In this document: in pieces, positions 32,289 through 57,369 of the stretch | How positions within the stretch are numbered: position 1 is the first letter of the stretch | How the letters are laid out: each line of letters opens with the position of its first letter | Notes under the pieces: generated by a model | Database searches by the model: none | What the model was told of the DNA's origin: nothing | Seen by the model: only the letters and a program-made list of their open reading frames with translations | Translations under genes and position numbers: made by a program | NCBI GenBank assembly: GCA_049513895.1 | Contig: JBEKVO010000005.1 | Coordinates: forward strand, 13,389 to 77,388 | Direction of reading: 5' to 3' | Source: Rectinemataceae bacterium | GTDB taxonomy: Bacteria; Spirochaetota; Spirochaetia; Treponematales; Rectinemataceae | Length of the DNA: 64,000 nt

Positions 32289-33571
32289 CGGGAGCCGCGC
32301 TTTCGGAAATCCATTATCCGCTCGGACAGCGCACGCATCTTCTCGGAGAGGCCGTCGGGCCTGCCCGCGGTTGCCTCTTGCGCCCAGGGCGCCACTACGG
32401 CCGCTTCGAGGGCTGGCCAGTCGGCGGGCGCCGCGGCCGCGGGTGCGATGAGCAGGGCGGCCGGGGGAACGTGGCCGACGAGGGCGGGGAAGAAGTTCGG
32501 AAGTATCTCTTCGTTGACGGAGCGAAGCGAAGAGAAGCCGCCGACAATGCCAAAGGAGTAGTCGAGGGCGCGGACGCGGCGCGATCTTTCCAGGATGGCG
32601 CGCTGCGCCTCGCTTCCGAGGAGCCAGCGCAGGAAGGCCTCGGCGGTTTTTCGGCCAGGGGCGCCGTTGACGAGGCCGGCGCAGACGATGCCGTCGGAGA
32701 AGAGGACACTGCCGTTCCGCGAGAACCAGCGAAAATCGAGGTCGGTCCGCCTCTTCTCCGGGGTGAGGAAGAAGTCCGACGAGTCCATACCGGCATAGAG
32801 GGCGCGGCCTTCTTTTAAATAGCGATAGGGGGGGGCGAACAGGTACCGGAATTGGAAGTCGTCTTCGAGGGCGGCCGAGACGTTGGCGCGGGACACCCAA
32901 TCGATTATTTCTCCTAACGCGGATTCGAGCCCCGGCCCGTTCCACTCGGGCTCCTTGCCTTCCGGGAAGATCGCGCCGCCGGCCTCCAGGGCCGATATCA
33001 GAAAACGCCCGTCCCATCGCGGGGAGAAGCCCATCCGCGTATAGGCGCCCCCCTCTTTCCGGTTGAAAGCGGCGGAAGAACGGTACATGTCGGCCAGGGA
33101 AAGCGTGAAACCGTCGCCCACGGAAGGTGTGCCGCGCGCGAAGACGATCGCCGGTAGGTTGAAAGAGATCGGGAGCAGGATGCGCCTGCCCCTGATCTTC
33201 CCCATCTCGAGCAAGTCGGGATAGAAGGCTCCCTTTTTGATGCGGCCACCTCTGAGCAGATAATCGAGTGTCGCGAACCTATCGCTCGTGGACGAGTTCC
33301 CCAGATAACGACCGATGGCGAGGGCGGGCGGAATTTTCGCGGATCGGAGGGCTTCGGCCAGGTCGGGTTTCCAATGGAGCTCGACGGTACTCGAGCGCTC
33401 GCCGACCCGCCCGTTTGCGGGGGAGGCAGGCTGCGCATCGAAGAGCTCGACGGCGAGGGCGAGTTCGGGGACATCGGTCCAAATGACCGCGCTTCCCCCG
33501 GAGGAGCCGGAGCATGAGACGAGACTGGAGGCAAGAAATGCGGCGAGCAGGGCCGCCGCGATGCGTCGCAT
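32282..33571 (-). CDS. Lipoprotein, periplasmic solute-binding-protein-like
   Basis: MRRIAAALLAAFLASSLVSCSG lipobox; size and composition like family-1 extracellular solute-binding proteins; function tentative. Confidence 0.5.
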   Translation of the reverse strand: MRRIAAALLAAFLASSLVSCSGSSGGSAVIWTDVPELALAVELFDAQPASPANGRVGERSSTVELHWKPDLAEALRSAKIPPALAIGRYLGNSSTSDRFATLDYLLRGGRIKKGAFYPDLLEMGKIRGRRILLPISFNLPAIVFARGTPSVGDGFTLSLADMYRSSAAFNRKEGGAYTRMGFSPRWDGRFLISALEAGGAIFPEGKEPEWNGPGLESALGEIIDWVSRANVSAALEDDFQFRYLFAPPYRYLKEGRALYAGMDSSDFFLTPEKRRTDLDFRWFSRNGSVLFSDGIVCAGLVNGAPGRKTAEAFLRWLLGSEAQRAILERSRRVRALDYSFGIVGGFSSLRSVNEEILPNFFPALVGHVPPAALLIAPAAAAPADWPALEAAVVAPWAQEATAGRPDGLSEKMRALSERIMDFRKRGSRQ

Positions 33572-33699
33572 GATGGACGACGATAATCCGAGCGATGAGG
33601 TCGCGCAAGTATCGCGGACCTATAGCCAGCCCTTCCCTTGCAAGGCATGAACGGGCACCTGTAGCGGTTGTACATGAAGTGGGCTATAATTCGCTCTAC

Positions 33700-34185
33700 A
33701 TGCAGATCAACGATACTGAGATATTTACGGCCGTGGAAGGGATAGGCGAGCATTTTCGGAACAATATTTCCAACCGATTCACCCGCAACGGAATTTTCTC
33801 GATGTTCCTGGTTCCGGGAACCTGGAGCCTCATAGAGGAACTTACCGAGAAGGTTGAGAATTACCGCTATCAGGGCTATCACTTCGACGAGATATACGCC
33901 CAGATACTCGCGATGGCCAGATTCGTCCACCAGGCGAAGCGTGAACTTCTGCCGAACATTCGCTCCCTGGCCACCGGAGGCGGCGATCGCGTGGAAGCTT
34001 CGGATAAAGTCCTTCGTGATATGGCTATCACTAACTTCGGCCCCAATCTCAAGATACTCGCCGACAAGGTGAACGAACTCTACGTCAAGGTCGCAGCGAT
34101 CGACAGGGAGAACGCCGGGATCAAGAGCCCGGTTTTCAACCAGATACCCGAACTGAAAGAGATCGGACGCTACCTGGTGGAATGA
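33700..34185 (+). CDS. Hypothetical protein
   Basis: 161-aa ORF from ATG 33700; TATAAT (33685-33690) lies 9 nt upstream of the ATG. Confidence 0.5.
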   Translation: MQINDTEIFTAVEGIGEHFRNNISNRFTRNGIFSMFLVPGTWSLIEELTEKVENYRYQGYHFDEIYAQILAMARFVHQAKRELLPNIRSLATGGGDRVEASDKVLRDMAITNFGPNLKILADKVNELYVKVAAIDRENAGIKSPVFNQIPELKEIGRYLVE

Positions 34186-34201
34186 CCGTTATGTGCGCTT
34201 A

Positions 34202-34230
34202 TTGACAACGACCCGCCAATCGCGTATGTT
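34202..34230 (+). promoter_or_regulatory. Sigma70-like promoter TTGACA-17-TATGTT for the tRNA/SRP RNA array
   Basis: Hexamers and 17-nt spacer counted directly; 17 nt upstream of first tRNA. Confidence 0.5.
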
Positions 34231-34247
34231 TTGCTACCGCGTTTACT

Positions 34248-34332
34248 GGAGCGGTGTCCGAGGGGTTTAAGGAGGCGGTCTTGAAAACCGCTGTGCCGCA
34301 AGGCACCGAGGGTTCGAATCCCTCCTGCTCCG
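34248..34332 (+). tRNA. tRNA-Ser (anticodon UGA)
   Basis: Manual cloverleaf: acceptor GGAGCGG/CTGCTCC, anticodon arm GCGGT-CTTGAAA-ACCGC, long variable arm GTGCC..GGCAC, T-arm GAGGG-TTCGAAT-CCCTC. Confidence 0.9.
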
Positions 34333-34352
34333 CGACCGTATTTGTCTTAATT

Positions 34353-34440
<88 letters not shown>

Positions 34441-34444
34441 TCCC

Positions 34445-34518
34445 GAGGTTATAGCTCAGATGGATAGAGCATCAGATTGCGGATCTGAAGGTCGGTGGTT
34501 CGAATCCACTTAGCCTCA
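34445..34518 (+). tRNA. tRNA-Arg (anticodon GCG)
   Basis: Acceptor GAGGTTA/TAGCCTC, D-arm GCTC-AGATGGATA-GAGC, anticodon arm TCAGA-TTGCGGA-TCTGA, T-arm GGTGG-TTCGAAT-CCACT. Confidence 0.85.
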
Positions 34519-34527
34519 TCGCCCATT

Positions 34528-34614
34528 GGAGAGATGCGAGAGCGGTTGAATCGGGCGGTCTCGAAAACCGTTGAACCCGTAAGGGTTCCGGGGGTTCGAA
34601 TCCCCCTCTCTCCG
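34528..34614 (+). tRNA. tRNA-Ser (anticodon CGA)
   Basis: Acceptor GGAGAGA/TCTCTCC, anticodon arm GCGGT-CTCGAAA-ACCGT, long variable arm, T-arm GGGGG-TTCGAAT-CCCCC. Confidence 0.9.
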
Positions 34615-34642
34615 CTTAACTTCAAGTAAAAATCGCACACTT

Positions 34643-34729
34643 GGAGAGATGGCCGAGCGGTCGAAGGCGCACGATTGGAAGTCGTGTTTACTCGTAAGGG
34701 TAACTAGGGTTCAAATCCCTATCTCTCCG
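34643..34729 (+). tRNA. tRNA-Ser (anticodon GGA)
   Basis: Acceptor GGAGAGA/TCTCTCC, anticodon arm CACGA-TTGGAAG-TCGTG, long variable arm, T-arm TAGGG-TTCAAAT-CCCTA. Confidence 0.9.
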
Positions 34730-34744
34730 GATCGGCTTCCCGCT

Positions 34745-34867
34745 CTTCGAGCGCCCGAAGCCAGGCACTGCGCTCGTGGCCGCCGCCTAAACCCGCCAGG
34801 TCCGGAAGGAAGCAACGGTAAGCGGTAGGCGCGGTGATGCAGAGCGCCTGGCTTCGAGCGCTCGAAG
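34745..34867 (+). ncRNA. ffs: Signal recognition particle RNA, small (4.5S-type)
   Basis: Conserved domain IV motif CCAGGTCCGGAAGGAAGCA at 34796-34814 at the tip of a ~120-nt hairpin (CTTCGAGCGCCCGAAGCCAGGC... pairs with ...GCCTGGCTTCGAGCGCTCGAAG); sits upstream of dnaX as in Bacillus. Confidence 0.85.
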
Positions 34868-34904
34868 TCTTTACCGACACTCCTCCTTGTGCTATTTTCA
34901 TTCC

Positions 34905-36656
34905 ATGCCTTATGAGATTACGGCTACCCGTAAGCGCCCCCAAAGTTTCGCGGAGCTCGCCGGACAGGAATTCGTATCGGCGACTTTGGAAGCCAGCCTG
35001 GCGAACGGCCGGATAGCCCATGCCTATCTTTTTTCGGGCCCCCGCGGCTGTGGCAAGACGAGCACGGCGCGCATTCTCGCGAGGGCCCTCAACTGCGAGA
35101 AGGGACCCTCGGCGCGACCCTGCGGGAAGTGCCGCTCGTGCGTCGAGATCGCCCGGGGCGCCAGCCTCGACGTGATCGAGATTGACGGCGCCTCCAACAC
35201 CTCGGTCGACAACGTTCGTCAGATCAAGGACGAGGTGCTCTTTCCTCCCAACGGCGGGCGTTACAAAGTCTATATCATTGACGAAGTGCACATGCTCTCG
35301 AACAGCGCCTTCAACGCGCTGCTCAAGACCATCGAGGAGCCGCCCCCCTACATCGTCTTCATCTTCGCGACCACCGAACTTCACAAGGTGCCGGCGACGA
35401 TAAAGAGCCGCTGTCAGCAATTCGCCTTCCGCTTGCTTCGTATCGATACCGTGAAGTCCCTCCTCGCCGTCGCCGCCGCGGAGACGGGAGTCGAGGCCGA
35501 GGACGACGCCCTCCTCTGGATAGCGAAGGAATCGGGCGGCTCGCCCCGCGATGCCTATACCCTCTTCGACCAGGTCGTTTCCTTCTCCGAGGGCAAGATC
35601 ACCTACGCCCTCATTCGCGACAAGCTCGGGCTCACCGGCCTCGATGCGCTGGGAAGCCTCTTCGGCGCGAGCGCAGCGGGGGACACGGGAGCCGCCCTCA
35701 TCGCCCTTGACGAGATTCTCGCCCGCGGCGTGTCGCCCGAGCAGATCGCCTCGGAGGCAGCCGAGTATTGTCGATCCCTCCTCCTCATCCGCAACGGCAT
35801 AACCAAGGCCGCTCTGCTCGGTGCCCCCACATCGTCCTATAACGCGGCCGCGCTGGAGATATTCACGAGCGAGCACCTGGAGCGCGCACTCGCCGAGCTC
35901 CTCGACCTGTACCGCGACCTGCGCTATACGGTCGATCCTCGCTTCGAACTCGAACTCGTCGTGGCCAAACTCTGCCGTCTCGCCGACTACGTGTCGGAGT
36001 CCGAACTGGCGAAGGTGGTATCCTCGCTCAAGCGCCGCCTCGCGGGCGAGGGGACCATCGACGGCATAGCGGCCGACACGATGATCCCCCGCAAGGCTAT
36101 TCCCGACGTTTCTCCCCCGGAAGAAAAAAAAAAGCCTGAGTTACCCCCGCAGCTGAGCGCGGCCTTCGACAGTCTTGCCGCAACGGCGTCGCGACCCCGC
36201 ATCATGAGCGACGCGTCCGAAGCGGATGCGGAAGCGGAGGGCGAGACAATCGCCGGTCCAATCTCCGGCGAGTCGCCCCCGGTCGGCGGGCCCGATCCGC
36301 TCCGGGCCGCGGTGATCGACGCCTTGGGGCGATCGAGTCCGCTGCTCAAGACGGGGTTAGCATCATCCTTGCCTTGGCGCGTCGAGGAGAGGCGGATTGT
36401 CATCCCGTTCCGCTCGGGAATGGATGAGAGCGTCGTACGGAGCAGTCTCGCCGACATAGCGGCCAAAGCCTCGGAACTCGCCGGAAGGCAGCTGAAGGTC
36501 GAGCTCAAGGTGGAGTCGACGCCGAGGCCAGCTGACGTCGCGGCGTCGAAAAATCCGGTTGAGGCCGGGCCCGATCCGGTGGCCATCGTGGAGAGGGTAT
36601 TCAGAGGCACCAGGATGCCCGATAGTGGACGAGGAGCGCATGATGAACTTCGCTGA
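34905..36656 (+). CDS. dnaX: DNA polymerase III subunits gamma and tau
   Basis: AHAYLFSGPRGCGKTSTARILARALNC, clamp-loader Zn module CGKCRSC, SRC motif region; first ATG 34905. Confidence 0.9.
   Translation: MPYEITATRKRPQSFAELAGQEFVSATLEASLANGRIAHAYLFSGPRGCGKTSTARILARALNCEKGPSARPCGKCRSCVEIARGASLDVIEIDGASNTSVDNVRQIKDEVLFPPNGGRYKVYIIDEVHMLSNSAFNALLKTIEEPPPYIVFIFATTELHKVPATIKSRCQQFAFRLLRIDTVKSLLAVAAAETGVEAEDDALLWIAKESGGSPRDAYTLFDQVVSFSEGKITYALIRDKLGLTGLDALGSLFGASAAGDTGAALIALDEILARGVSPEQIASEAAEYCRSLLLIRNGITKAALLGAPTSSYNAAALEIFTSEHLERALAELLDLYRDLRYTVDPRFELELVVAKLCRLADYVSESELAKVVSSLKRRLAGEGTIDGIAADTMIPRKAIPDVSPPEEKKKPELPPQLSAAFDSLAATASRPRIMSDASEADAEAEGETIAGPISGESPPVGGPDPLRAAVIDALGRSSPLLKTGLASSLPWRVEERRIVIPFRSGMDESVVRSSLADIAAKASELAGRQLKVELKVESTPRPADVAASKNPVEAGPDPVAIVERVFRGTRMPDSGRGAHDELR
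36124..36139 (+). other. A10 run containing in-frame A AAA AAG slippery heptamer followed by a -1 frame GCC TGA stop (candidate gamma-subunit recoding site)
   Basis: Zero frame GAA GAA AAA AAA AAG CCT GAG (EEKKKPE); -1 frame after slip reads AAA AAA GCC TGA. Confidence 0.55.
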
Positions 36657-36972
36657 GATCATGGAGATGCTGAGGAACCCCCAGGCGTTGCAGGCGCAGA
36701 TGACCGAGCTGCGCGAGAAGACCGAGAGGATACGGGCCACGGGAAACTCCGGCGGCGGCATGGTGCGCGTGACCTTGAATGGAGCCTTGGAGATGCTTTC
36801 CTGCGAGATATCTCCCGAGATCGTCGCGGGAGGCGATACGGCCCTCATCCAGGACCTCGTGCGAGGCGCCTTCAACGACGCGGCAGCGAAGGTCAAGGAG
36901 TCGCTGCAGGCCGAGCTTTCTTCGGGGATGGGGGGCATGCCCTTTCCGCCCGGGATGCTCGGGGGACTGTAG
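36640..36972 (+). CDS. ybaB: Nucleoid-associated protein YbaB/EbfC
   Basis: MMNFAEIMEMLRNPQALQAQMTELREK...GGGMVRVTLNG...; canonical dnaX-ybaB-recR order. Confidence 0.85.
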   Translation: MMNFAEIMEMLRNPQALQAQMTELREKTERIRATGNSGGGMVRVTLNGALEMLSCEISPEIVAGGDTALIQDLVRGAFNDAAAKVKESLQAELSSGMGGMPFPPGMLGGL

Positions 36973-37559
36973 TGAGGGCTCTCGAGGAGCTCGTGAGCCT
37001 TCTTACGAGGCTTCCGGGCATCGGGCGCAAGAGCGCCCTCAGGGTGACATATTATCTGCTCAAAACCGATGGATCCTTCGCACAGGCCCTTGCGGACAGA
37101 ATACGCGAGCTCAAGGGATCCATAACCTTCTGCTCGCTCTGCGGCTCGTATACGGAATCCGATCCCTGCCCGGTCTGCTCCTCGCCCTCCCGCGACCACT
37201 GTCTCATCTGCGCCGTGGAGCAGCCCCAGGACGTCGTGACAATCGAGGCTTCGCGCGAATATCATGGTCTTTACCACGTTCTCGGCGGTCTAATCTCTCC
37301 CCTGGACGGAGTCGGCCCCGAGGACCTCAAGATACGCGAGCTCGTCGCGAGAGCCGGCTCGGGCGAGGTGACGGAGGTTGTGGTCGCGACGAATCCGACC
37401 GTAGAGGGGGATACCACCGCGCTCTATCTAAAACGCCTCCTCGAGCCCACCGGCGTCGCGGTCACGAGGCTCGCTACGGGTATTCCGGTTGGCGGGGACC
37501 TCGAGTATGCCGATCGGCTGACTCTGGCGCGTTCGTTCCGCGGCCGTACGAAGCTGTAA
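36972..37559 (+). CDS. recR: Recombination protein RecR
   Basis: LPGIGRKSALR helix-hairpin-helix, CSLCGSYTESDPCPVC zinc finger, Toprim region; GTG start overlapping ybaB stop. Confidence 0.9.
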   Translation: MRALEELVSLLTRLPGIGRKSALRVTYYLLKTDGSFAQALADRIRELKGSITFCSLCGSYTESDPCPVCSSPSRDHCLICAVEQPQDVVTIEASREYHGLYHVLGGLISPLDGVGPEDLKIRELVARAGSGEVTEVVVATNPTVEGDTTALYLKRLLEPTGVAVTRLATGIPVGGDLEYADRLTLARSFRGRTKL

Positions 37560-37570
37560 CGGGGGGTTCG

Positions 37571-38341
37571 ATGATGGATTGGGATCCGTCGCAGTATCTG
37601 CGATTCGTGGCGGAGCGGACTCGACCTTCCGCCGACCTGGCGGCTCGGATCGAAGTTGCGGAGCCATCGGCCATCGTCGACATAGGCTGCGGCCCGGGCA
37701 ACAGCACGCGCGTGCTGCGCGACAGGTGGCCGCAAAGCTCCATCCTCGGTCTGGATAGCTCCCCCGCGATGATAGCGCAGGCCAAACAGGAATATAATGA
37801 GATGTCATGGACCGTAGCCGACGCGTCGGACTTCGACGCGCGGGAGGCCTACGATGTCGTTTTCTCGAACGCGGCGCTGCAGTGGATCCCCGATCACGCC
37901 CGCCTCGTGCCGAAGCTTTTCGGCGCGGTCCGGCCTCGCGGAGCCCTGGCGATCCAAATCCCTCAATTCACGTCCATGCCGATAAGCGCCGCGATGGAGG
38001 CGGTGGCCGGATCCGTTCGATGGGCAAAGCACACCGAAGGCTGTGCCGCGAACTTCACCTACCATGATGCGAAGTACTACTACGATCTCCTCTGCCCTCT
38101 TTCGAGCGGGATCGACCTATGGGAAACCTGGTATTTCCACGTTCTGCCTTCCCACGGAGCGCTGATCGATTTCATCCGCAGCACGGGAATGAAACCCTAC
38201 CTCGACGCGATCTCCGGCGAGGCCAACAAGGCCGAGTTCGAGCGCGACGTTCTCGCCAGGGTGGAGAAGGCCTATCCCTCCGGCGCGGACGGTAAAGTCC
38301 TTTTCCCCTTCGACAGACTTTTCTTCATCGCGTACAGATAG
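37571..38341 (+). CDS. tam: Trans-aconitate 2-methyltransferase
   Basis: MMDWDPSQYLRFVAERTRPSADLAARI...VDIGCGPGNST...GLDSSPAMIAQAK closely parallels E. coli Tam N-terminus. Confidence 0.8.
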   Translation: MMDWDPSQYLRFVAERTRPSADLAARIEVAEPSAIVDIGCGPGNSTRVLRDRWPQSSILGLDSSPAMIAQAKQEYNEMSWTVADASDFDAREAYDVVFSNAALQWIPDHARLVPKLFGAVRPRGALAIQIPQFTSMPISAAMEAVAGSVRWAKHTEGCAANFTYHDAKYYYDLLCPLSSGIDLWETWYFHVLPSHGALIDFIRSTGMKPYLDAISGEANKAEFERDVLARVEKAYPSGADGKVLFPFDRLFFIAYR

Positions 38342-42882: not shown

Positions 42883-44355
42883 TTGAATAAACGGGATTTT
42901 CCGCGTGTGCATTTCTATGATCAAGACTTCGTCGAGGTGTATGATCGCACCTGGGCATGGATCGCAGATTGTTGGGCTTCCGGCGGAGTAGGGACGCCGA
43001 TAGAGAAATCCAAGTATTTCCAGTACAACAACGAACCCGTAATCGATTTGTTGGATCAGGTCTTCTCGTCTTTTTTTCTCGTCTATTCCAATAGGATATA
43101 TGCCGCGTCAAGCGGCCTCGATACTCTTTACGCGCTTCAGGAATCCAATGGCGCGATTCGATCACGCTACGATGCGGAGACGGGTAGTCCAATTTTTCCG
43201 AAGGACAATCCCGAAGGCCTCGGCCTCCCTCTCTTCGCTTGGGCAGAGTACAACCTCTACCACAAGACCGCGAACAAGAAGCGCGTTAAGGAGGTGATGC
43301 CCTCCCTCCAGCGCCACTGGGCTTGGATGGAATCGACCTTCAAGCGCGAGAACGGTCTCTACGATGTCCCTGTCTCGGCCACGGGAATGGAGAACTCTCC
43401 CCGCGCCGGCGCTCTTTACCTCTCGGACTTCAACGCGGCGATGGCGATGAACGCCCTCTACCTGTCTGCCCTCGGCGACATTCTCAACGATAAGGAAGCC
43501 TCTTTCCAATTCAAGCGCTCCTATTTTTCGCTAAAAACGCGCATCAATTCCCTGATGTGGAACGCCGTCGACGGCTTCTACTACGATCTCGACAAAGACG
43601 AAAAACAGGTACCGACGAAGACCATAGGCGGCTATTGGCCGCTCCTCGCCGAGATACCCAACGAAGAGCGTTCCGAGCGGCTCATCGCTCACTTGAAGGA
43701 TCCAGCCATTTTCGGTACTGAGCACCCCTTCCCCACTCTTGCCGCCGATCAGAAGGCCTACGACAAACGGGGCATGGGCTACAGAGGGTCGGTCGTTCCG
43801 CCTTTTACCTATATGGTCATCAAGGGCCTTGAAAAGTACAATCAGTACGAGCTGGCCCGCGACTGCGCGATCCGCCACCTCTATTTTGTCCTTGACTCGA
43901 TGCACCAAGGCGGCGAGGACCGCGATGAAGACGGGGACAGGCGTTCCGAGAAGGGCTCGCCCGAGCATAGGCCCACCGTTTGGGAAGCCTACCAGCCGCA
44001 GAATGAGGGCAAGGCAATCTGGCCGGAACGTCCCGAATGGCCCCGCCCCCAGTTTCTCGCCTTTACGGGCCTGTCGACCATCGCCCTCATGATCGAGAAC
44101 ATCGTCGGGCTCTATATCTCCCTGCCGCGCAAGACGGTCGATTGGATCATCCCCAACCTCGAGATCATGGGCATCGAGAATCTCTCGCTCAAGCGCAATC
44201 TCGTGACCATACTCTCCAATAAATCGGGCCGAGGCTGGGAGATCCACATGGAGAGCGAGAAGCTCTACTATTTTACGATCAACGTGCTCGGCAAGAAGAA
44301 GAAGACCCTGCCAATTCCCTCGGGCAAGTGCTCGATGCTCATAGACAAGATATAA
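42883..44355 (+). CDS. Six-hairpin glycoside hydrolase (GH63/MGH1-like or trehalase-like)
   Basis: GLYDVPVSATGMENSPR and WEAYQPQNE motifs of (alpha/alpha)6 glucosidase/trehalase-type enzymes; TTG 42883 has a GGGG RBS, GTG 42847 is the alternative start. Confidence 0.65.
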   Translation: MNKRDFPRVHFYDQDFVEVYDRTWAWIADCWASGGVGTPIEKSKYFQYNNEPVIDLLDQVFSSFFLVYSNRIYAASSGLDTLYALQESNGAIRSRYDAETGSPIFPKDNPEGLGLPLFAWAEYNLYHKTANKKRVKEVMPSLQRHWAWMESTFKRENGLYDVPVSATGMENSPRAGALYLSDFNAAMAMNALYLSALGDILNDKEASFQFKRSYFSLKTRINSLMWNAVDGFYYDLDKDEKQVPTKTIGGYWPLLAEIPNEERSERLIAHLKDPAIFGTEHPFPTLAADQKAYDKRGMGYRGSVVPPFTYMVIKGLEKYNQYELARDCAIRHLYFVLDSMHQGGEDRDEDGDRRSEKGSPEHRPTVWEAYQPQNEGKAIWPERPEWPRPQFLAFTGLSTIALMIENIVGLYISLPRKTVDWIIPNLEIMGIENLSLKRNLVTILSNKSGRGWEIHMESEKLYYFTINVLGKKKKTLPIPSGKCSMLIDKI

Positions 44356-44397
44356 GTTGAGCGGGATACCCTTGCAGACATTATCTAAGGCCGCCTC

Positions 44398-44560
44398 TTC
44401 GACGGGTCCCAGCTCGCGAAAAGCGTCTCCAGACAAGCTGGGGGCGTTTTTCGCGGCGTGTCCCGTCAAGGGGTGGTCCTCGGGATGTCAGGACGGGGGT
44501 TACCCATTCAAGCTGCATTCTATTTCATGAGCATGAGCGCGTTGTTTTTGCACCGTTAAA
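44398..44560. repeat. Left copy of island-flanking repeats: X (44398-44466) followed by Y (44486-44560)
   Basis: X matches the reverse complement of 47515-47592 almost base for base; Y aligns in direct orientation with 47353-47430 at roughly 70 percent identity by eye. Confidence 0.7.
44419..44451 (+). terminator. Bidirectional rho-independent terminator after the glycoside hydrolase gene (core of repeat X)
   Basis: AAAAGCGTCTCCAG-ACAAG-CTGGGGGCGTTTTT. Confidence 0.65.
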
Positions 44561-45080
44561 TATTCCCGAATCGAACGTAGGACCCCCCTTAGCGGAGTAG
44601 CTTTGCGCGTTGGGCGATCGCTGAATGATTATTAGCGGAGGTCCAGGCCTATTCGAGGAACTTCCGATACTCGACGCCCAATGCATCTCCGAGCTTGCGC
44701 TCCATCGTGAGGACACAACCGCGCGCCGATCATTCTCAACCGCGGAGAGGTTTGGATACCGCGTATCGATAGCTTCATGACGCTGGCGCGATCCTCGCGG
44801 AGATACCCATACCCGGCGATTCAAAACCAGGTTCTGGAGTTCTGGAGTACAAACCCGAAAGTATCGTGGGTTAGCGTACACAGAAACCAACACTGAACCC
44901 GCATTAGAAGCAGTTCAAGCACAGCTCATGCAACAGAGCTGGATACTTAGGTCTACTCCGTGGAACTTATTCTAGGGCCCCCTCAACACACCGGATAAAG
45001 GTGGTATCGAGGCTTTTCGGCACATTGACCTCATTTGATTGAATCAACATAATAGCCGCCGACAATCAAGGAGAAGGACA

Positions 45081-46211
45081 ATGGGATTCACATCGCTCAC
45101 AATACAAGATTTTCGCGCATTCAAAGATCTTCAAATTGACGGTTTTGGGAATGTCAACTTGATTGTTGGGCGCAACAACACAGGCAAGACCTCCCTACTA
45201 GAAGCATTACTCTTGATAACGGGAATGTCCAATCCCGGACTTCCGATCGCCATACACAATTGGCGAGATCTCATACTAACAGAAGCTGATGATTTTCAAT
45301 TCATGTTCCACAATCTTGACTTCAGCAATATTATTCATATCACCGCCGTCCAGTTTGACGGGAAGGTGCGGAATCTTAAAATTGAGCCTCAATATGGCAT
45401 CACCCCGGGGAGTCTTATTCCTGGGAGTCTTATTCCTGGTGGCTTTATCCCTGGGCCCCAAGGAATTGATCAATCCAGCGAGACTATCGGAGGTAAAAAA
45501 AGTGGAACCCATTCCCTGGCTTCTACGCTATCCAACAAAAACATCACAGGAATTCAACTTTCTTTCACTACACCAGAGGGGAATCCCCTGACCACTTACG
45601 TCAATATCTTTCAGGGGGGCAGTGTAACCACCGCACCGCCCGTTTACAAGGATGAGCTAGTAGGCGTATTCCTCAATCCTAGAACGATAAATCTCGGTTT
45701 CGAAATTATCTGGGAAAGGCTATTGCGTGAAAAGAAAACAGACTTCGTGATCAAGGCACTCAAACAAATAGAGCCGCGAATACAACGTATTGATATCGGA
45801 ACACGGGGTATGCTCTGGGTCGACATTGGGCTCGAAACACTGGCTCCCATCAACATCCTTGGCGACGGCTTCCGACATATATTCACAGTGCTCGCATCTC
45901 TCTATACGGCTCAAAACGGGGTGCTAATCATCGATGAAATCGAAAACGGTTTACATCATTCTACCCTAGAAGTCATGTGGGATGCGTTGCTGGCAGCTAG
46001 CCAGGACTACAATGTTCAGGTTTTTGCAACAACACATTCCTACGAGTGTGTTGTTGCTTATGCTGATGCAGTAGAAAAGATTTATCCTATTGCCCCCGAT
46101 TCCGCCAAACTTTTTCGGTTAGAAAGAATACCCGAAGGCGGCCATAGAGCTGTCCCGTACACTTCGAAAGTCATGAGAACAGCGCTTGACCAAGGGTATG
46201 AGGTTCGATGA
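45081..46211 (+). CDS. ABC/SMC-type ATPase (AAA_21/AAA_15-like, OLD/AriA/AbiLi-class)
   Basis: Walker A GRNNTGKTS, Walker B VLIIDEIENGLH, H-loop ATTHS, long variable insert between them; AAGGAGAAGG RBS before ATG 45081. Confidence 0.8.
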   Translation: MGFTSLTIQDFRAFKDLQIDGFGNVNLIVGRNNTGKTSLLEALLLITGMSNPGLPIAIHNWRDLILTEADDFQFMFHNLDFSNIIHITAVQFDGKVRNLKIEPQYGITPGSLIPGSLIPGGFIPGPQGIDQSSETIGGKKSGTHSLASTLSNKNITGIQLSFTTPEGNPLTTYVNIFQGGSVTTAPPVYKDELVGVFLNPRTINLGFEIIWERLLREKKTDFVIKALKQIEPRIQRIDIGTRGMLWVDIGLETLAPINILGDGFRHIFTVLASLYTAQNGVLIIDEIENGLHHSTLEVMWDALLAASQDYNVQVFATTHSYECVVAYADAVEKIYPIAPDSAKLFRLERIPEGGHRAVPYTSKVMRTALDQGYEVR

Positions 46212-46855
46212 TGGCTACACGAACACTACCTCCTCCTCAGCCACTCACCTCTCACCGCCTGCTTGCAGTTGAAGGCCTTGATGAGTGCAATTTTTTCAAA
46301 GCGTTAGCGAAGCTACTGCCTATTCACGATGTACAGATCAGAAATGTCGGCGGCAATATAAAATTTGCAGAAGAGTTTGAAGCCCTCCAGAAAATGGAGG
46401 GCTTTAACGCATTAACGGCTATAGGAATTGTGCGTGACGCAGAGCAAGACCCCGCCACGCACGCTTTCCAAAGTGTATGCCACATTCTAAACAATTTTGG
46501 GCTACCATTCCCTGCTGCTCCTGGTCAAGTTAGCCTTGCGCAGACTCCCTCGGTAGGTGTATTTATCATGCCGGACAATGCCTCCCTGGGGATGCTCGAA
46601 GATCTCTGTTTAGAGACACTTCAAGGGACCCCCATAGAAGACTGTTTGCAGCATTATGTTGCTTGCTTTTCTTCCACACAGTTGCCAGAAGAACAAAAAC
46701 ACTTCAAGCCTTCTAAGGCTCATGTGCAAGCGTATTTAGCATCGAGGGCACCAATCGTTCCCTCTTTGGGACTAGGGGCACTACACAATTATTGGGATTT
46801 GGACCATTCATGTTTTAGCGAAATCAAGCGCTTTTTAACGGCCCTTTTCCCGTAA
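46208..46855 (+). CDS. Small TOPRIM-like protein (DUF4276/DUF3226/DUF4435/RloB-like partner of ABC ATPases)
   Basis: ATGATG overlap with the ATPase stop; LLAVEGLDE (strand + invariant Glu), IGIVRDAEQD and FIMPDNASLGMLEDL acidic clusters; family not resolvable by eye. Confidence 0.65.
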   Translation: MMATRTLPPPQPLTSHRLLAVEGLDECNFFKALAKLLPIHDVQIRNVGGNIKFAEEFEALQKMEGFNALTAIGIVRDAEQDPATHAFQSVCHILNNFGLPFPAAPGQVSLAQTPSVGVFIMPDNASLGMLEDLCLETLQGTPIEDCLQHYVACFSSTQLPEEQKHFKPSKAHVQAYLASRAPIVPSLGLGALHNYWDLDHSCFSEIKRFLTALFP

Positions 46856-47099
46856 TTGCGCGCTCCGCGGCGTAGTCAACGCCGGCGAGGCCGATCTTGA
46901 GATCAAGGTCGCGCACGAGCCGCTGGCTGTAGGCCCGGCGGTCGAAGGTCTCGACGCCCGCTGACCCTGATTCGACGACCTGCTCGAAGGCGCTCCACGT
47001 CCGTTTCGGTCGAAGATTCCATGAGTCCGAGAATAGAATGTTCTCGAGCTCATGGACAAACGCATACTCTGTCTCGCGTTGGGGATTGTCCTAAATTCC

Positions 47100-47365
47100 G
47101 GGCTCGGTATACCAAGCCCAGAACGAGTTCTTAAAGAAAAAAGTACAGACATTGCGTTACGATAAAAGCTCAGAAAAAGTACCTCGCGGTCACGCGCGAA
47201 GACGCGCTCAAAGCCTTCGAACACTTTGTCGAGTCTTTTGGGGCGAAATATCCGAAGGCGGTGGAATTTTTCATGAAGGACAAAGATAACTTCTTCGCGT
47301 TCTATGACTTCCCCGCCGCCCATTGGATTCACCTGAGAACTACAAATCCTATCGAGTCGAGTGTC
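47100..47365 (+). pseudogene. Decayed, frameshifted C-terminal relic of an IS256-family transposase
   Basis: EDALKAFEHFVESFGAKYPKAVEFFMKDKDNFFAFYDFPAAHWIHLRTTNPIES matches the conserved IS256 C-terminal block; upstream KKVQTLRYDKSSEKVP is a degenerate QRCxVHKxRN region in another frame; no DDE core present. Confidence 0.7.
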
Positions 47366-47592
47366 AGGACGGGGTTTACCCGCTCAGGCTGTCCCTTTTC
47401 CCCGAGCGCATGGGCGCGTTGTTGTAAACCATCAACTCCGCGCGCTGAAGTAGCATTGCCTTTCGATGACGCCGACACGGGTGGACGCAGCGCTGATATG
47501 TCCCAAGGCTGCCGATCCGCCGGGACACCGCGTAAAAACGCCCCCAGCTTGTCTGGGGTCGTTTTTCGCGAGCTGGGACCCGGCGGAGGGGT
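47353..47592. repeat. Right copy of island-flanking repeats: Y (47353-47430, direct) and X (47515-47592, inverted)
   Basis: See left copy; read and aligned by hand. Confidence 0.7.
47534..47566 (-). terminator. Bidirectional terminator after the EamA gene (core of repeat X)
   Basis: AAAAACGCCCCCAG-CTTGT-CTGGGGTCGTTTTT. Confidence 0.6.
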
Positions 47593-47617
47593 AGCCTTGA
47601 ATCATGTAGAGCCTCAA

Positions 47618-48535
47618 TTACGCGTTCGCCGATTGGGAGGGCTTTGTCGACTCAAGTTGGGAGATGATGGTGCCGCAGAGCATGAGGAGGCCTCCCGCGA
47701 CGAGGCGCGGCGTCAGAGGCTCCCCGAGCAGGATGATTCCTCCGATCGCGGCGAAGAGCGACTCCAGCGACAGAATGATCGACGCGTGGGCCGGGTGCGC
47801 GGTCTTCTGCGCGTAGATCTGAAGCGTGAAGGCGACGCCGGTCGAGAATATTCCGCCGTAGAGAATGGGCACGGCCGCCGCGAGGGTCCCCGCGAAGGGG
47901 GCGCTCTCGAGGGTCAGGGCGCCGAACAGGCTGAAAAGCGAACAGAGGGCGTACTGGCCGATCGCCAACTCGAGACCGTCCATGCGGCCGCCGAAGCGCC
48001 CGACTACCAGTATGTGAAGGGCCCAGAAAAAGGCGCCCACCAGCTCGAGTAGATCGCCGCGGGCAATCGTGAAGCCCGAGCCTATGCTGAGAATGTAGAG
48101 ACCCGTGAGGGCGATAAGAGCGCCCGCCCAGATGCGCGGCCCCGATCTCCTGCCGAAGGCGAAGCCGACGAGGGGCACGAGGATTACATAGAGGCAGGTG
48201 ATAAAGCCCGAATTTCCCGCCGTGGTGGTGACTAGGCCCATCTGTTGGAAGCTCGTGCCACAGAAGAGTACCGCCCCCGTTACGGAGATGTAGGCGAGCT
48301 TTTTCGCAAGGCCCGGTCTGGGGCCGCCCGAGGGGCCGGCGGCGCGAGTGCGGCGTTTCACGACAAGGAGGATGGGCAGGACGCTGAGCGCGCCTACCGC
48401 GAAGCGAACGGCGTTGAAGGCGAAGGGCCCGATGCTCTCCATGCCGCTCCGCTGTGCCGAGAATGCGGAGCCCCAGATGACGGCCGTGATGACGAGGAGG
48501 CCGTCGGACTTAAGATCGTCCTTGGAGATTCGCAT
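47618..48535 (-). CDS. EamA/DMT family transporter
   Basis: Ten predicted TM helices, two EamA repeats (VIWGSAFSAQR...); ATG 48535 preferred, 48604 possible. Confidence 0.8.
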   Translation of the reverse strand: MRISKDDLKSDGLLVITAVIWGSAFSAQRSGMESIGPFAFNAVRFAVGALSVLPILLVVKRRTRAAGPSGGPRPGLAKKLAYISVTGAVLFCGTSFQQMGLVTTTAGNSGFITCLYVILVPLVGFAFGRRSGPRIWAGALIALTGLYILSIGSGFTIARGDLLELVGAFFWALHILVVGRFGGRMDGLELAIGQYALCSLFSLFGALTLESAPFAGTLAAAVPILYGGIFSTGVAFTLQIYAQKTAHPAHASIILSLESLFAAIGGIILLGEPLTPRLVAGGLLMLCGTIISQLESTKPSQSANA

Positions 48536-50239: not shown

Positions 50240-51312
50240 GATTCAGGATAAAACACGCCGACAAGGTAGTCGGGTTCTTCGTGCTTCTCGCGGTGATCTT
50301 TCTGGCGGGAGGCATTATTTTCCTAGGCGCCAACCAACGCTGGTTCTCGAAAGACATACACTTTACGACGCGTTTTGCGTCGGCCGCGGGCGCATCGCCC
50401 GGTACGGCGATCATGATGCGAGGCTTCCAGGTCGGCAAGGTGACCAAGGTGAAGCTCAATGCGCAAAACGTAGTCGACGCGGATTTCGTCATCTACGACA
50501 GCTACTACCCGAAGGTGAAGGTGAACTCCGTCCTCGAACTCGTCACTTCGCCGATAGGCCTCGGGACCCAGCTTCTCTTCCACCCCGGCAAGGACGAGGC
50601 GCTCGCGCCCCCGGGGAGCAACGTGCCCCTCGCCGACTCCGACGAAGGCAGAGACCTCATCGATCAGGGCCTCGTCGACATACCGGTAAAGGACGACACC
50701 ATAACCCGCCTCATCGCGGGGGTGAATCCCTTGATCGAGAACGCCAACAAGACCGTAATCACGATAAACCGCACCTTGACCGAAATAAACCGCGCCCTTG
50801 CCGGCCAGAGTTCCGGCCCCCTCGGTTCGATAGTGACGAGCGCTTCTGCGGCGGCTGCACACGCCGATGGCTTGCTCGCGGACGTCTCAGCCGAGGCAAA
50901 GGGGCTCGTCACCAAGGCCAACGGCCTCATCGACTCCGTCAACGCCATTACCAAGAACCTCGAAGCCACCACCTCGGCGATACGCGACCCGACGGGGCTC
51001 GTACCCAAGCTCCTCGACGCGAAGGGCTCGATCAAGACCCTGCTCGACGACAATAACGCGTTATTCGACAGCATCAACACGAGCCTGGGTGAGCTCCAGA
51101 AGACCCTGAAGAACGTTCAGGATATATCGAGCTCGGTGAGCGGGCAGATGCCGACGATCGCGGTGACGATAGACGAGGGGAGGACGGCCATCAGGCAAGC
51201 CCAGGACGTGCTTACAGGCCTCAAGAATAACCCGCTTTTGAAAGGCGGAATCCCCTCTCGGGCCGAACAAGTCCCAATGAGTCAGAGCCTGAGGGAGGGA
51301 TCCTTCCAATGA
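50236..51312 (+). CDS. mlaD: MlaD/MCE-domain protein
   Basis: N-terminal TM anchor then MCE fold start (FASAAGASPGTAIMMRGFQVGKVTKVKL), long helical tail. Confidence 0.7.
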   Translation: MRFRIKHADKVVGFFVLLAVIFLAGGIIFLGANQRWFSKDIHFTTRFASAAGASPGTAIMMRGFQVGKVTKVKLNAQNVVDADFVIYDSYYPKVKVNSVLELVTSPIGLGTQLLFHPGKDEALAPPGSNVPLADSDEGRDLIDQGLVDIPVKDDTITRLIAGVNPLIENANKTVITINRTLTEINRALAGQSSGPLGSIVTSASAAAAHADGLLADVSAEAKGLVTKANGLIDSVNAITKNLEATTSAIRDPTGLVPKLLDAKGSIKTLLDDNNALFDSINTSLGELQKTLKNVQDISSSVSGQMPTIAVTIDEGRTAIRQAQDVLTGLKNNPLLKGGIPSRAEQVPMSQSLREGSFQ

Positions 51313-52286
51313 CGCGTCCTCATCGGGCCGAGATTCTTATCATAGCGTCGGCCGTCGTCACGGGCGCGATCTTTTTCGCATCGTGCTCATCGGCGCCCAA
51401 GCCCCCGGATGGGGTGTACGATGCGCGAAACAAGGCCGCCGAGCTCGCCAAGCTCGGCGACGGCTTCATGTCCAAGGCGCAGTACGCTTCCGCGCTCCAG
51501 TACTACGCCGACGCCCTAAAGGCTAACTCCGCGGTGGACGACCTCCTCGGCGTAGCCGCATCGCACGCGTCGATGGGCAGGGCCTATCTGGCAGCGGGCG
51601 AGGCGGATGCGGCCAAGCTCGAGTACGAGGCTTCCCTCGAGTACGCCCGCTTCTCCGGTTCGACCGAGGCTCAATCCGTCGCCAAGTCGGGTTTGGGAGA
51701 GATCGCCTTCGCCGGAGGTGCCAAGGCCGAGGCCCTCGCCTACTTCGAAGAGGCGATGTCGCTTGCTCCCGCCGTGGGAGCGGCGAAGGACGAGAAAGCC
51801 TTCGCCATAGCGCTGCACGACGCCGCCGTCGCGAAGGCCGCTCTGGGGCGAGCTCCCGAGGCGATAGTCGACCTCGAGCGGGCTCAGGGCATGAACCTCA
51901 AGGCGAAGCGCTGGGTCGAGCTGGGGGCGAACCGTTACGCCCTCGCCTCGGCGCTGTCGGGCGAGGGCCGCACGAGCGAGGCGCTCGGGGCCGCCCTCGG
52001 CGCCCTGGACGCGGACAAGCGCGCCGAGAACGCGAGGGCCGTGCCCCTCGACCTTGCGGCCGCCGCGAGCCTGTGCAACAAGCTGGGCAGGGGCGCCGAT
52101 GCCTGGGATTATTGGCATAGGTCCTTCGACTCCGCCCTGTCGGCCGACGATGCCTCCTCCGTGCGGAAGGCGCTCAACGCGTTGGTCGAACTGGCCCCGA
52201 AATTGAAAAAAAACGGAGCGCGTTATGCGGCGCTTCTCGATAAACTCGACCAGGCCGAGGGGAAGACGAGTACCGATTCCCCTTAG
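51309..52286 (+). CDS. TPR-repeat lipoprotein
   Basis: Lipobox FFASCS; repeated A-x-x-Y-Y/A-L-G TPR-like helices; translationally coupled to mlaD-like gene. Confidence 0.65.
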   Translation: MTRPHRAEILIIASAVVTGAIFFASCSSAPKPPDGVYDARNKAAELAKLGDGFMSKAQYASALQYYADALKANSAVDDLLGVAASHASMGRAYLAAGEADAAKLEYEASLEYARFSGSTEAQSVAKSGLGEIAFAGGAKAEALAYFEEAMSLAPAVGAAKDEKAFAIALHDAAVAKAALGRAPEAIVDLERAQGMNLKAKRWVELGANRYALASALSGEGRTSEALGAALGALDADKRAENARAVPLDLAAAASLCNKLGRGADAWDYWHRSFDSALSADDASSVRKALNALVELAPKLKKNGARYAALLDKLDQAEGKTSTDSP

Positions 52287-56400: not shown

Positions 56401-56556
56401 GACTCTCCCCTTCAGGCGAGATTGTAGTCGCGCCTCCGAAAGGGAGCGCGCGCCCTGTAAAAATACCGCAACTTCGACAAAAAAACATACTGTCACGCAT
56501 TCCGAAACACCGAGTGCCTGTTGATCTGTTACCGCACGGCGGCTATTCTGAGGGCC

Positions 56557-57369
56557 ATGAGTTTTTTTTCGCCCTTTCGGGCGGCGCGTCGCAGGCGCAT
56601 ACTCGAGCGTTCCCCCATAAATGAAGAGCTTTGGGAATGGGCGATCAAGGAACACAGAATATTCCACTGGCTCGATGAAACGGACCGTGCGAGGCTCCGT
56701 GAGCTTTCGACGATCTTCCTCGCGGAAAAGCTTTTCGACCCCGTCGGCGGCGTCGAGCTGGATGATGAGCTCAAGGTCTCCATCGCCTCCCAGGCCTGCC
56801 TGCCAATCCTCGGCCTCGATATGGATTGGTATTCCGACTGGTCGACTATCATCGTCACGCCGAGGGAATACGACGTCAAGAAACGCGACGTCGACGACGC
56901 TGGCGTCGTCCACGAGTACGACGACGAGTTTTCCGGCGAGGCCTTCGATCTCGGGCCCGTGGCCCTATCCCGCGTCGACGTGGAAGCGTCGGGTTGGGGC
57001 GATGGCTATAATGTCGTGATTCACGAGATGGCGCACAAGCTCGACGGCAGGGACGGCGCCTACGACGGTTGTCCGCCTCTTCATAGCGGCATGGATTACG
57101 GCGCCTGGCGCGACGCCTTTCGCCCGGCCTACGAGGCGCTTCGCGCGTCCCTCGAGCGGCCGACCCCGCGCCGCGGACGAAGTTCCCGCGCGAAGCGGGG
57201 GCCGCGCATCGATTCCTACGCCGCCGAATCTCCCGACGAGTTTTTCGCGGTGACGACCGAGTATTTCTTCGAGAAGCCCGCCCTTCTCCGCTCGGAGTAT
57301 CCCGAGGTGTTCGCGCAGCTCGCTCTGTTTTTCAGACGAGATCCGACGGCGGGCATACGATCGCGCTAA
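56557..57369 (+). CDS. mtfA: MtfA (Mlc titration factor A) zinc peptidase family protein
   Basis: VIHEMAHKLD zinc motif, C-terminal DEFFAVTTEYFFEKP. Confidence 0.8.
   Translation: MSFFSPFRAARRRRILERSPINEELWEWAIKEHRIFHWLDETDRARLRELSTIFLAEKLFDPVGGVELDDELKVSIASQACLPILGLDMDWYSDWSTIIVTPREYDVKKRDVDDAGVVHEYDDEFSGEAFDLGPVALSRVDVEASGWGDGYNVVIHEMAHKLDGRDGAYDGCPPLHSGMDYGAWRDAFRPAYEALRASLERPTPRRGRSSRAKRGPRIDSYAAESPDEFFAVTTEYFFEKPALLRSEYPEVFAQLALFFRRDPTAGIRSR

Follow-up and report, generated by a model that had tools for sequence, protein, structure and literature searches.

The dnaX gene considered here lies in a 64-kb stretch of DNA (the window, GC content about 62%) in its usual context: five tRNA genes are followed by the gene for SRP RNA, dnaX itself, ybaB and recR (Table 1). 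Its identity is beyond doubt. The 583-aa product matches, residue for residue, a protein annotated in a Rectinemataceae (Spirochaetota) MAG. In a profile search it scored 414.6 bits against TIGR02397 dnaX_nterm (cutoff 250), and the Pfam domains DNA_pol3_delta2, DNAX_ATPase_lid and DNA_pol3_gamma3 (gamma domain III) were found on it. In the window, dnaX is a single unbroken ORF of 583 codons, without the two-ORF arrangement in which a zero-frame stop lies just past the homopolymeric run. Gamma domain III ends at about residue 370, and a tract of ten A residues (A10) covers residues 407-410. Genes for tRNA-Lys are absent from the 64-kb window; in the genome as a whole, a tRNA-Lys(CUU) dedicated to AAG alongside tRNA-Lys(UUU) would make an A_AAA_AAG heptamer much less slippery.

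Table 1. Features at and around the dnaX A10 site (coordinates are those of the 64-kb window).
Feature	Position	Strand	Remarks
Five tRNA genes	34248-34730		Precede SRP RNA
SRP RNA	34759..34856	+	Immediately 5' of dnaX
dnaX CDS (tau, 583 aa)	34905..36656	+	Start ATG at 34905 matches the MPYEITAT N-terminus of homologues
A10 tract, phase xAA AAA AAA AAn	36124..36133	+	Conserved slippage-prone element
A_AAA_AAG heptamer, zero-frame X_XXY_YYZ phase	36128..36134	+	3' G varies within the family
-1 frame TGA	36137..36139	+	One codon (GCC, 36134-36136) past the run
First conserved tau-only peptide motif ELPPQLSAAFDSLAA	36138..36182	+	Directly 3' of the A10 site
+1 frame TGA	36154..36156	+	Seven codons past the run
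ybaB/ebfC	36643-36972	+	Usual dnaX operon partner
recR	36972-37559	+	Usual dnaX operon partner

The zero frame of dnaX reads GAA (36120) GAA AAA AAA AAG (36132) CCT GAG across the tract, encoding EEKKKPE. The initial annotation had drawn attention to these codons, to the run of ten A residues, to the in-phase A_AAA_AAG heptamer at its 3' end and to the GCC TGA that follows in the -1 frame, and all of these are present as it described them (36120-36139). It had also placed the site past the clamp-loader core, and had predicted a shortened DnaX, gamma, of about 410 aa alongside full-length tau. Both points agree with the sequence: with domain III ending near residue 370, the A10 site lies some 40 aa beyond the core, at a relative position in the protein similar to that in E. 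coli, and either a -1 slip or an mRNA with eleven A residues (A11) would yield 411 aa ending in ...EEKKKA. The +1 frame stop listed in Table 1 had not featured in that account. The predicted gamma would lack the tau-only motif ELPPQLSAAFDSLAA and all sequence beyond it.

The run cannot be put down to chance, since shuffled sequences predict 0.04 A10 tracts where the window has one, and since no base forms a longer homopolymer anywhere in these 64 kb. In the window's genes Lys is encoded by AAA in 25% of cases, Glu by GAA in 29% and Pro by CCT in 9%, so that GAA-AAA-AAA-AAG-CCT runs against codon bias at nearly all of its synonymous positions. Stop placement was evaluated over 8,263 codon positions in the same genes. 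Closure of the -1 frame no later than one codon on has P=0.023 and closure of the +1 frame by the seventh codon P=0.20, with P=0.003 for the two together. Assembly error does not account for the tract, because five independent assemblies of the window's species all encode an intact 583-aa DnaX. A role of the tract as a terminator was considered and ruled out, the promoter and terminator scan having found no promoter-like or terminator-like signal overlapping it on either strand.

Comparison was then extended to the family. DNA was obtained for 12 members by exact-protein look-up and for one more, L081, from a metagenome scan; the 13 sequences compared are the window and 12 relatives, with L165, which has lost the run, set aside. 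They share 55-85% protein identity, and the GC content of the gene ranges from 0.61 to 0.70. Of the 13, 12 have exactly ten A residues, phased as xAA AAA AAA AAn with respect to the C-terminal frame of tau, the sole exception being an A9 on a contig named in long-read style (L164). The flanks (30 nt 5' and 36 nt 3' of the run) are unalignable, with column majorities of 30-60%. The base immediately 3' of the run is G in eight sequences and C in five (L162, L164, L166, L167 and L172); as this base changes while A10 stays constant, conservation attaches to the run and not to the heptamer. Measured against the frame of tau, the -1 frame closes after one codon in ten sequences and within eight codons in all 13, the codon past the run ending in T before GAR or GAT (CCT, CAT, GTT or GCT) and thereby creating UGA. 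The +1 frame closes within 3-14 codons in all 13. The initial annotation had named conservation of the heptamer together with the -1 stop in related genomes as a check: a -1 stop is indeed kept within eight codons in all 13, whereas the 3' G of the heptamer has given way to C in 5/13.

Among the best 120 homologues (52-100% identity), 90 read [E/Q]KK[K/N] at the site, a motif set in an otherwise hypervariable linker, the variation being in length as well as sequence. The residue before KK[K/N] in these 90 is E in 79, Q in ten and R in one (P0079, a frame-disrupted call), that is, residues with codons able to end in AA, which fits what an A10 run demands. The site can be lost, as seen from the decayed tract CAA AAA GAA AAA CCA AAG of L165 (78% identity), whose tau is shorter. 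The anatomy of the site, a run whose length and phase are strictly kept in the face of codon bias, and the closure of both alternative frames are direct observations; as far as comparison of sequences can speak, they show that the A10 tract is under selection, and a function of the site is almost certain.

The model that we favour is provided by Thermus thermophilus, where RNA polymerase slips on an A9 run in dnaX, and transcripts of lengths other than 9+3n give rise to gamma, at about 50% (PMC1088944). That scheme needs stops in both alternative frames, and Baranov et al. have pointed out that a GC-rich genome is unlikely to contain long A/T runs in the absence of positive selection (PMC1088944). 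The features of the present site correspond: a sense-strand run of at least nine A residues lies within the tau ORF past domain III, -1 and +1 stops are near, and across the 13 family sequences the length of the run is kept while its flanks and 3' neighbour vary. A run longer than a heptamer needs, with both frames closed, favours the Thermus scheme for the whole family. The A10 tract is thus probably a selected recoding site, from which tau and gamma would both arise by programmed transcriptional realignment of the Thermus type.

In detail, RNA polymerase would slip on the T10 template and release mRNAs whose run is n residues longer or shorter than A10, so that one dnaX gene would give tau (583 aa, about 64 kDa) and a truncated gamma of 411-417 aa and about 45 kDa that keeps clamp-loader domains I-III and has shed all tau-specific sequence. 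Transcripts with A10 or A13 would be translated to tau, with one extra Lys (EEKKKKPE) in the case of A13, a form that no other transcript would give. Those with A11 or A8 would run into the UGA at 36137 after a single Ala (...EEKKKA), the 411-aa product of A11 being the same as that of a -1 ribosomal slip. Those with A9 or A12 would end at the UGA at 36154 (...KSLSYPRS), giving a 416-aa protein with the terminus ...EEKKSLSYPRS from A9 and one of 417 aa from A12. The ends ...EEKKSLSYPRS and ...EEKKKSLSYPRS would be diagnostic, arising only from A9 and A12 transcripts or from +1 shifts. That slippage takes place here at all is something we infer, along with its efficiency and the resulting tau:gamma ratio.

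Ribosomal frameshifting is the obvious competitor, and was the headline of the initial annotation. According to this explanation gamma would be made mainly by -1 programmed ribosomal frameshifting (PRF) on A_AAA_AAG, a tandem slip of tRNA-Lys being followed by GCC and UGA to yield the 411-aa protein. The window has a perfect heptamer in phase (36128-36134), identical to that of E. coli dnaX (PMC3711429; PMC5009743), with an immediate -1 stop one codon on (36134-36139); moreover, the phase of the run is invariant across the family, and of the two stops the -1 stop is the nearer and the better conserved. In E. coli, however, the cassette comprises not only the heptamer but also an internal Shine-Dalgarno (SD) sequence about 10 nt 5' of it and a 3' stem-loop (PMC3711429), and the absence of such stimulators at the present site is directly established. 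GGAG, GAGG and AGGA are all missing from the 30 nt 5' of the site in the window and in eight other sequences, and where the remaining relatives have an SD-like motif its position varies. No stable 3' hairpin was detected in the 60 and 90 nt downstream, which are less stably folded than dinucleotide shuffles (z of +0.85 and +1.13, respectively), nor is a hairpin shared among nine relatives, whose folds differ in place and strength. A cmscan search of positions 33000-38000 (E<=1) returned tRNAs, SRP RNA and noise only, with no match to the Rfam DnaX frameshifting element. Conservation within the family also argues against the ribosome as the main agent: the C that replaces the 3' G in five of the 13 sequences turns the heptamer into A_AAA_AAC, on which E. 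coli ribosomes shift far less readily than on A_AAA_AAG (PMC5009743), and the three 5'-most A residues, superfluous for a heptamer, are nevertheless invariant and force GAA or CAA against codon bias. We consider ribosomal frameshifting unlikely as the main route, although it could dominate at a perfect heptamer with an immediate -1 stop; with G following the run, a -1 slip of the ribosome may in this genome supply part of the 411-aa product. The outcome proposed in the initial annotation, gamma by recoding, is strongly supported by the comparative conservation and is probably right, whereas its E. coli-like ribosomal mechanism is not what is conserved and is probably wrong. Its side remark on Thermus-type transcriptional slippage is the better fit to a site with A10 in 12/13 sequences and no E. 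coli stimulators found, a site that is probably Thermus-like.

Two further points count against the favoured model. The propensity to slip depends on the species, and in the AT-rich spirochete Borrelia long A/T runs are not avoided, a pattern that Baranov et al. attribute to suppressed slippage (PMC1088944); and KKKPELP also occurs in some Lachnospiraceae DnaX proteins where it is encoded without an A run, so that part of the amino-acid conservation may lie at the protein level. Conceivably, no recoding takes place and only tau is made, the tract being kept for another reason, such as a functional Lys-rich peptide, EKKKPELP, with which the tau-specific region opens, or a DNA or RNA signal. In the Lachnospiraceae sequences (L102, L018 and L043) the KKKPELP-like peptide is written AAG AAA AAA CCG GAA and lacks a -1 stop, tau has been proposed as the sole product of Borrelia dnaX (10.1101/2022.10.17.512582), and the run has been lost in L165. 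Selection on the protein would nevertheless leave unexplained the all-A synonymous choices, the third-position T that creates UGA (in CCT, CAT, GTT and GCT) and the closure of both alternative frames in 13/13 sequences, and no promoter-like or terminator-like site was found at the tract. Absence of recoding appears quite improbable. A hypermutable (phase-variable) site at the DNA level, or an assembly artefact, with the recoding layout merely incidental, is suggested by truncated dnaX calls at or beside the run in metagenome assemblies of relatives (L164 and P0127, both A9 versions) and by an extra C located 5 nt 5' of the run in L162. This we regard as very improbable indeed, given that the 583-aa gene is intact in five independent assemblies of the species, that the same A10 is found in lineages with as little as 55% identity, and that dnaX is essential, which makes on/off switching implausible. 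Most truncated calls sit on contigs named in long-read (Flye-like) style, and one of them, L162, has an intact 593-aa cluster mate (P0121), from which it differs by the one extra C. In P0055 the indel lies 3' of the run. Assembly errors, mostly in long-read-style contigs, are the probable cause of the truncated calls in relatives; the call of L163 is ambiguous. A reversed architecture, with gamma in the zero frame, would have been proof of efficient slippage; it was considered for the truncated calls P0058, P0079, P0062 and P0055 and rejected, as these are mostly explained by indels in or beside the homopolymer.

Scans of genome and metagenome contigs for universal DnaX motifs yielded mostly distant phyla and few close relatives, and served as a survey of dnaX at large. 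The sample consisted of 80 GTDB species representatives, picked by N-terminal motifs only among the matches listed. A run of A9-A11 located 326-378 aa past Walker A is present in 12 of these 80 listed dnaX genes (15%), with carriers in Leptospira, Bacteroidota, Ignavibacteriota, Fibrobacterota, Planctomycetota and Omnitrophota. No such run occurs in the N-terminal 325 aa of any of the 80 among the matches listed, nor do any of them have T, G or C runs of at least 9. Both other frames are closed within nine codons at every surveyed run, except in L053 (Bacteroidetes), a two-ORF dnaX with tau in the -1 frame. Counting loci, A10 was found in 24 of the 172 among the matches listed, and in all 24 on the sense strand of dnaX.

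Descriptions of dnaX PRF come from Escherichia, Salmonella, Neisseria and Vibrio, and of slippage from Thermus; no description of this dnaX site in spirochetes was found in the literature consulted. The slippage mechanism itself is already known, and it is the lineage and the site that are new in the literature reached. It is tempting to speculate that the A10 tract represents the first programmed transcriptional-slippage site in Spirochaetota and samples a larger, largely unannotated class comprising some 15% of dnaX genes, a proposal that we put forward tentatively. The same tentative reading, if correct, would make RNA polymerase slippage, and not ribosomal frameshifting, the commonest bacterial route to gamma. 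In runs that end in G, slippage by polymerase and by ribosome may converge on the same 411-aa product, and the natural series of G-ending and C-ending runs within the family could be used to separate the two. What bacteria gain from two forms of DnaX is still debated, and one of the main arguments for the importance of gamma is that the tau/gamma split has been arrived at along different routes in unrelated lineages; a family-wide A10 in GC-rich spirochetes would add an independent lineage to this argument. On the practical side, annotation pipelines call tau only at this dnaX, and homopolymer-linked assembly indels (miscalled run lengths as well as indels in the flanks, chiefly on contigs of long-read style) would generate spurious truncated dnaX genes in related MAGs.

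Among known systems, Caulobacter crescentus arrives at the same outcome, a DnaX lacking the C-terminus of tau, by partial proteolysis of tau by ClpXP; this happens after translation, with no slippery element in DNA or RNA. In the best-studied spirochete, Borrelia, dnaX appears to be without a frameshift element and might make only tau (10.1101/2022.10.17.512582). The -1 PRF cassette of E. coli and other enterobacteria shares with the present site the heptamer in phase, the -1 stop one codon on and an outcome of tau plus gamma. It differs in possessing the SD sequence about 10 nt 5', the 3' stem-loop and the Rfam family match that are absent here, and the present site has a 3' G that varies in relatives and a run three A residues longer than the heptamer. 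Parallels are also found in the 17 two-ORF dnaX genes reported by Antonov et al. (2013, PMC3711429), nine of which carry A10: here too the element is poly-A with A10 as the commonest form, its place in dnaX is the same, and the mechanism has been inferred to be transcriptional. In the two-ORF genes, however, tau is the recoded product, whereas here tau is the product of the zero frame and gamma would be the recoded one; the relatives L162, L163 and L164, which look like two-ORF genes, resemble assembly indels more than true reversals. The nearest match is dnaX of Thermus thermophilus (Larsen et al. 2000, as cited in PMC1088944 and PMC5009743), with a single tau ORF, a sense-strand run of at least nine A residues past the core, near stops in both alternative frames, gamma from transcripts of non-3n length and no need for RNA stimulators. 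The present site differs from it in having A10 instead of A9, in belonging to the family Rectinemataceae of the Spirochaetota, with slippage predicted from sequence, and in that the run is here followed by G and so doubles as an E. coli-type heptamer.

A run of nine to eleven A residues lying just 3′ of domain III, the last clamp-loader core domain, was found in 12 of the 80 GTDB species-representative dnaX loci that had been picked by N-terminal motifs from the matches listed, and the carriers belong to unrelated phyla. Both alternative frames close within 9 codons in these carriers, L053 excepted. One carrier, a MAG labelled Leptospira (L008), has two A9 runs spaced 95 nt apart. This class of dnaX genes appears to be mostly without annotation. 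The sequence GAAAAAAAAAAGCCTGA of the window also recurs, identically, in a distant dnaX (36% identity, 48% GC) from a metagenome; its presence in both reflects either convergence or deep conservation. In a family relative of 78% identity (L165) the tract is interrupted, with the codons CAA AAA GAA AAA CCA AAG around aa 395–405, and tau is shortened to 541 aa; this looks like a lineage in which the recoding site has been lost. Some Lachnospiraceae DnaX proteins carry a KKKPELP, KRKPELP or KKPEVP peptide at a relative position equal to that of the site in the window. The peptide is encoded by AAG AAA AAA CCG GAA, with neither a long A run nor a −1 stop, and represents either a protein-level motif opening the tau-specific region or the remnant of a lost slippage site.

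Features of the window and of other dnaX loci, with positions in the sequence named; the A runs listed are examples.
Feature	Sequence	Position	Remark
A run	L008	2673	
A run	L008	2768	
A run	L042	2665	
A run	L058	2669	
A run	L061	2721	
A run	L068	2666	
A run	L069	2643	
A run	L070	1601	
A10	L053	2604-2613	Bacteroidetes
GAAAAAAAAAAGCCTGA	L109	2720-2735	
KKKPELP-like peptide	L102	~1747-1790	Lachnospiraceae
KKKPELP-like peptide	L018	~2711-2750	Lachnospiraceae
KKKPELP-like peptide	L043	~2746-2790	Lachnospiraceae
tRNA cluster (n=5)	window	34248-34856	closely packed, directly 5′ of dnaX; range includes SRP RNA
SRP RNA	window	34759-34856	after tRNA cluster
G8	window	32828-32835	next-longest homopolymer
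A8	window	52206-52213	next-longest homopolymer; close to 3′ end of ORF 51309-52286
T8	window	56562-56569	next-longest homopolymer; close to start of ORF 56521-57369

Homopolymer tracts like the A10 of dnaX are a hazard for annotation. Truncated or frame-scrambled dnaX calls in related MAGs (loci L162 and L164, protein calls P0055, P0126 and P0127) result from indels in or beside homopolymers, namely A9 replacing A10, one additional C, or an altered C-run, and the majority of the contigs concerned are named in long-read style. The DnaX N-terminus on a contig labelled Eggerthellaceae (Actinomycetota; L007) is 57% identical to the DnaX of the window, much closer than expected, which may reflect mis-binning or contamination.

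No Pfam match, even at E≤1, was obtained for the 173 C-terminal residues specific to tau (window 36135-36653), and conservation of this region within the family is high (ELPPQLSAAFDSLAA..., ...LGRSSPLLKTGL...IPFRSGMEES...VERVFRG). In this lineage, the C-terminal domain of tau lies outside what current models cover.

The tRNA cluster upstream of dnaX comprises four tRNA-Ser isoacceptors (TGA, GCT, CGA, GGA) and tRNA-Arg(GCG). Minus-strand Rfam matches to ‘Plastid-psbl-rps4’, below threshold, were rejected as the antisense of tRNA-Ser. Elsewhere in the window, GC content falls to 0.52 across 44001-48000, compared to about 0.62 in the remainder, and this segment may be foreign or otherwise atypical.

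A different arrangement is evident in the Bacteroidetes dnaX (L053), in which a zero-frame stop lies one codon past the A10 run and the −1 frame stays open for 215 codons. This corresponds to the two-ORF architecture, with tau produced by recoding, of Antonov et al. 2013 (PMC3711429).
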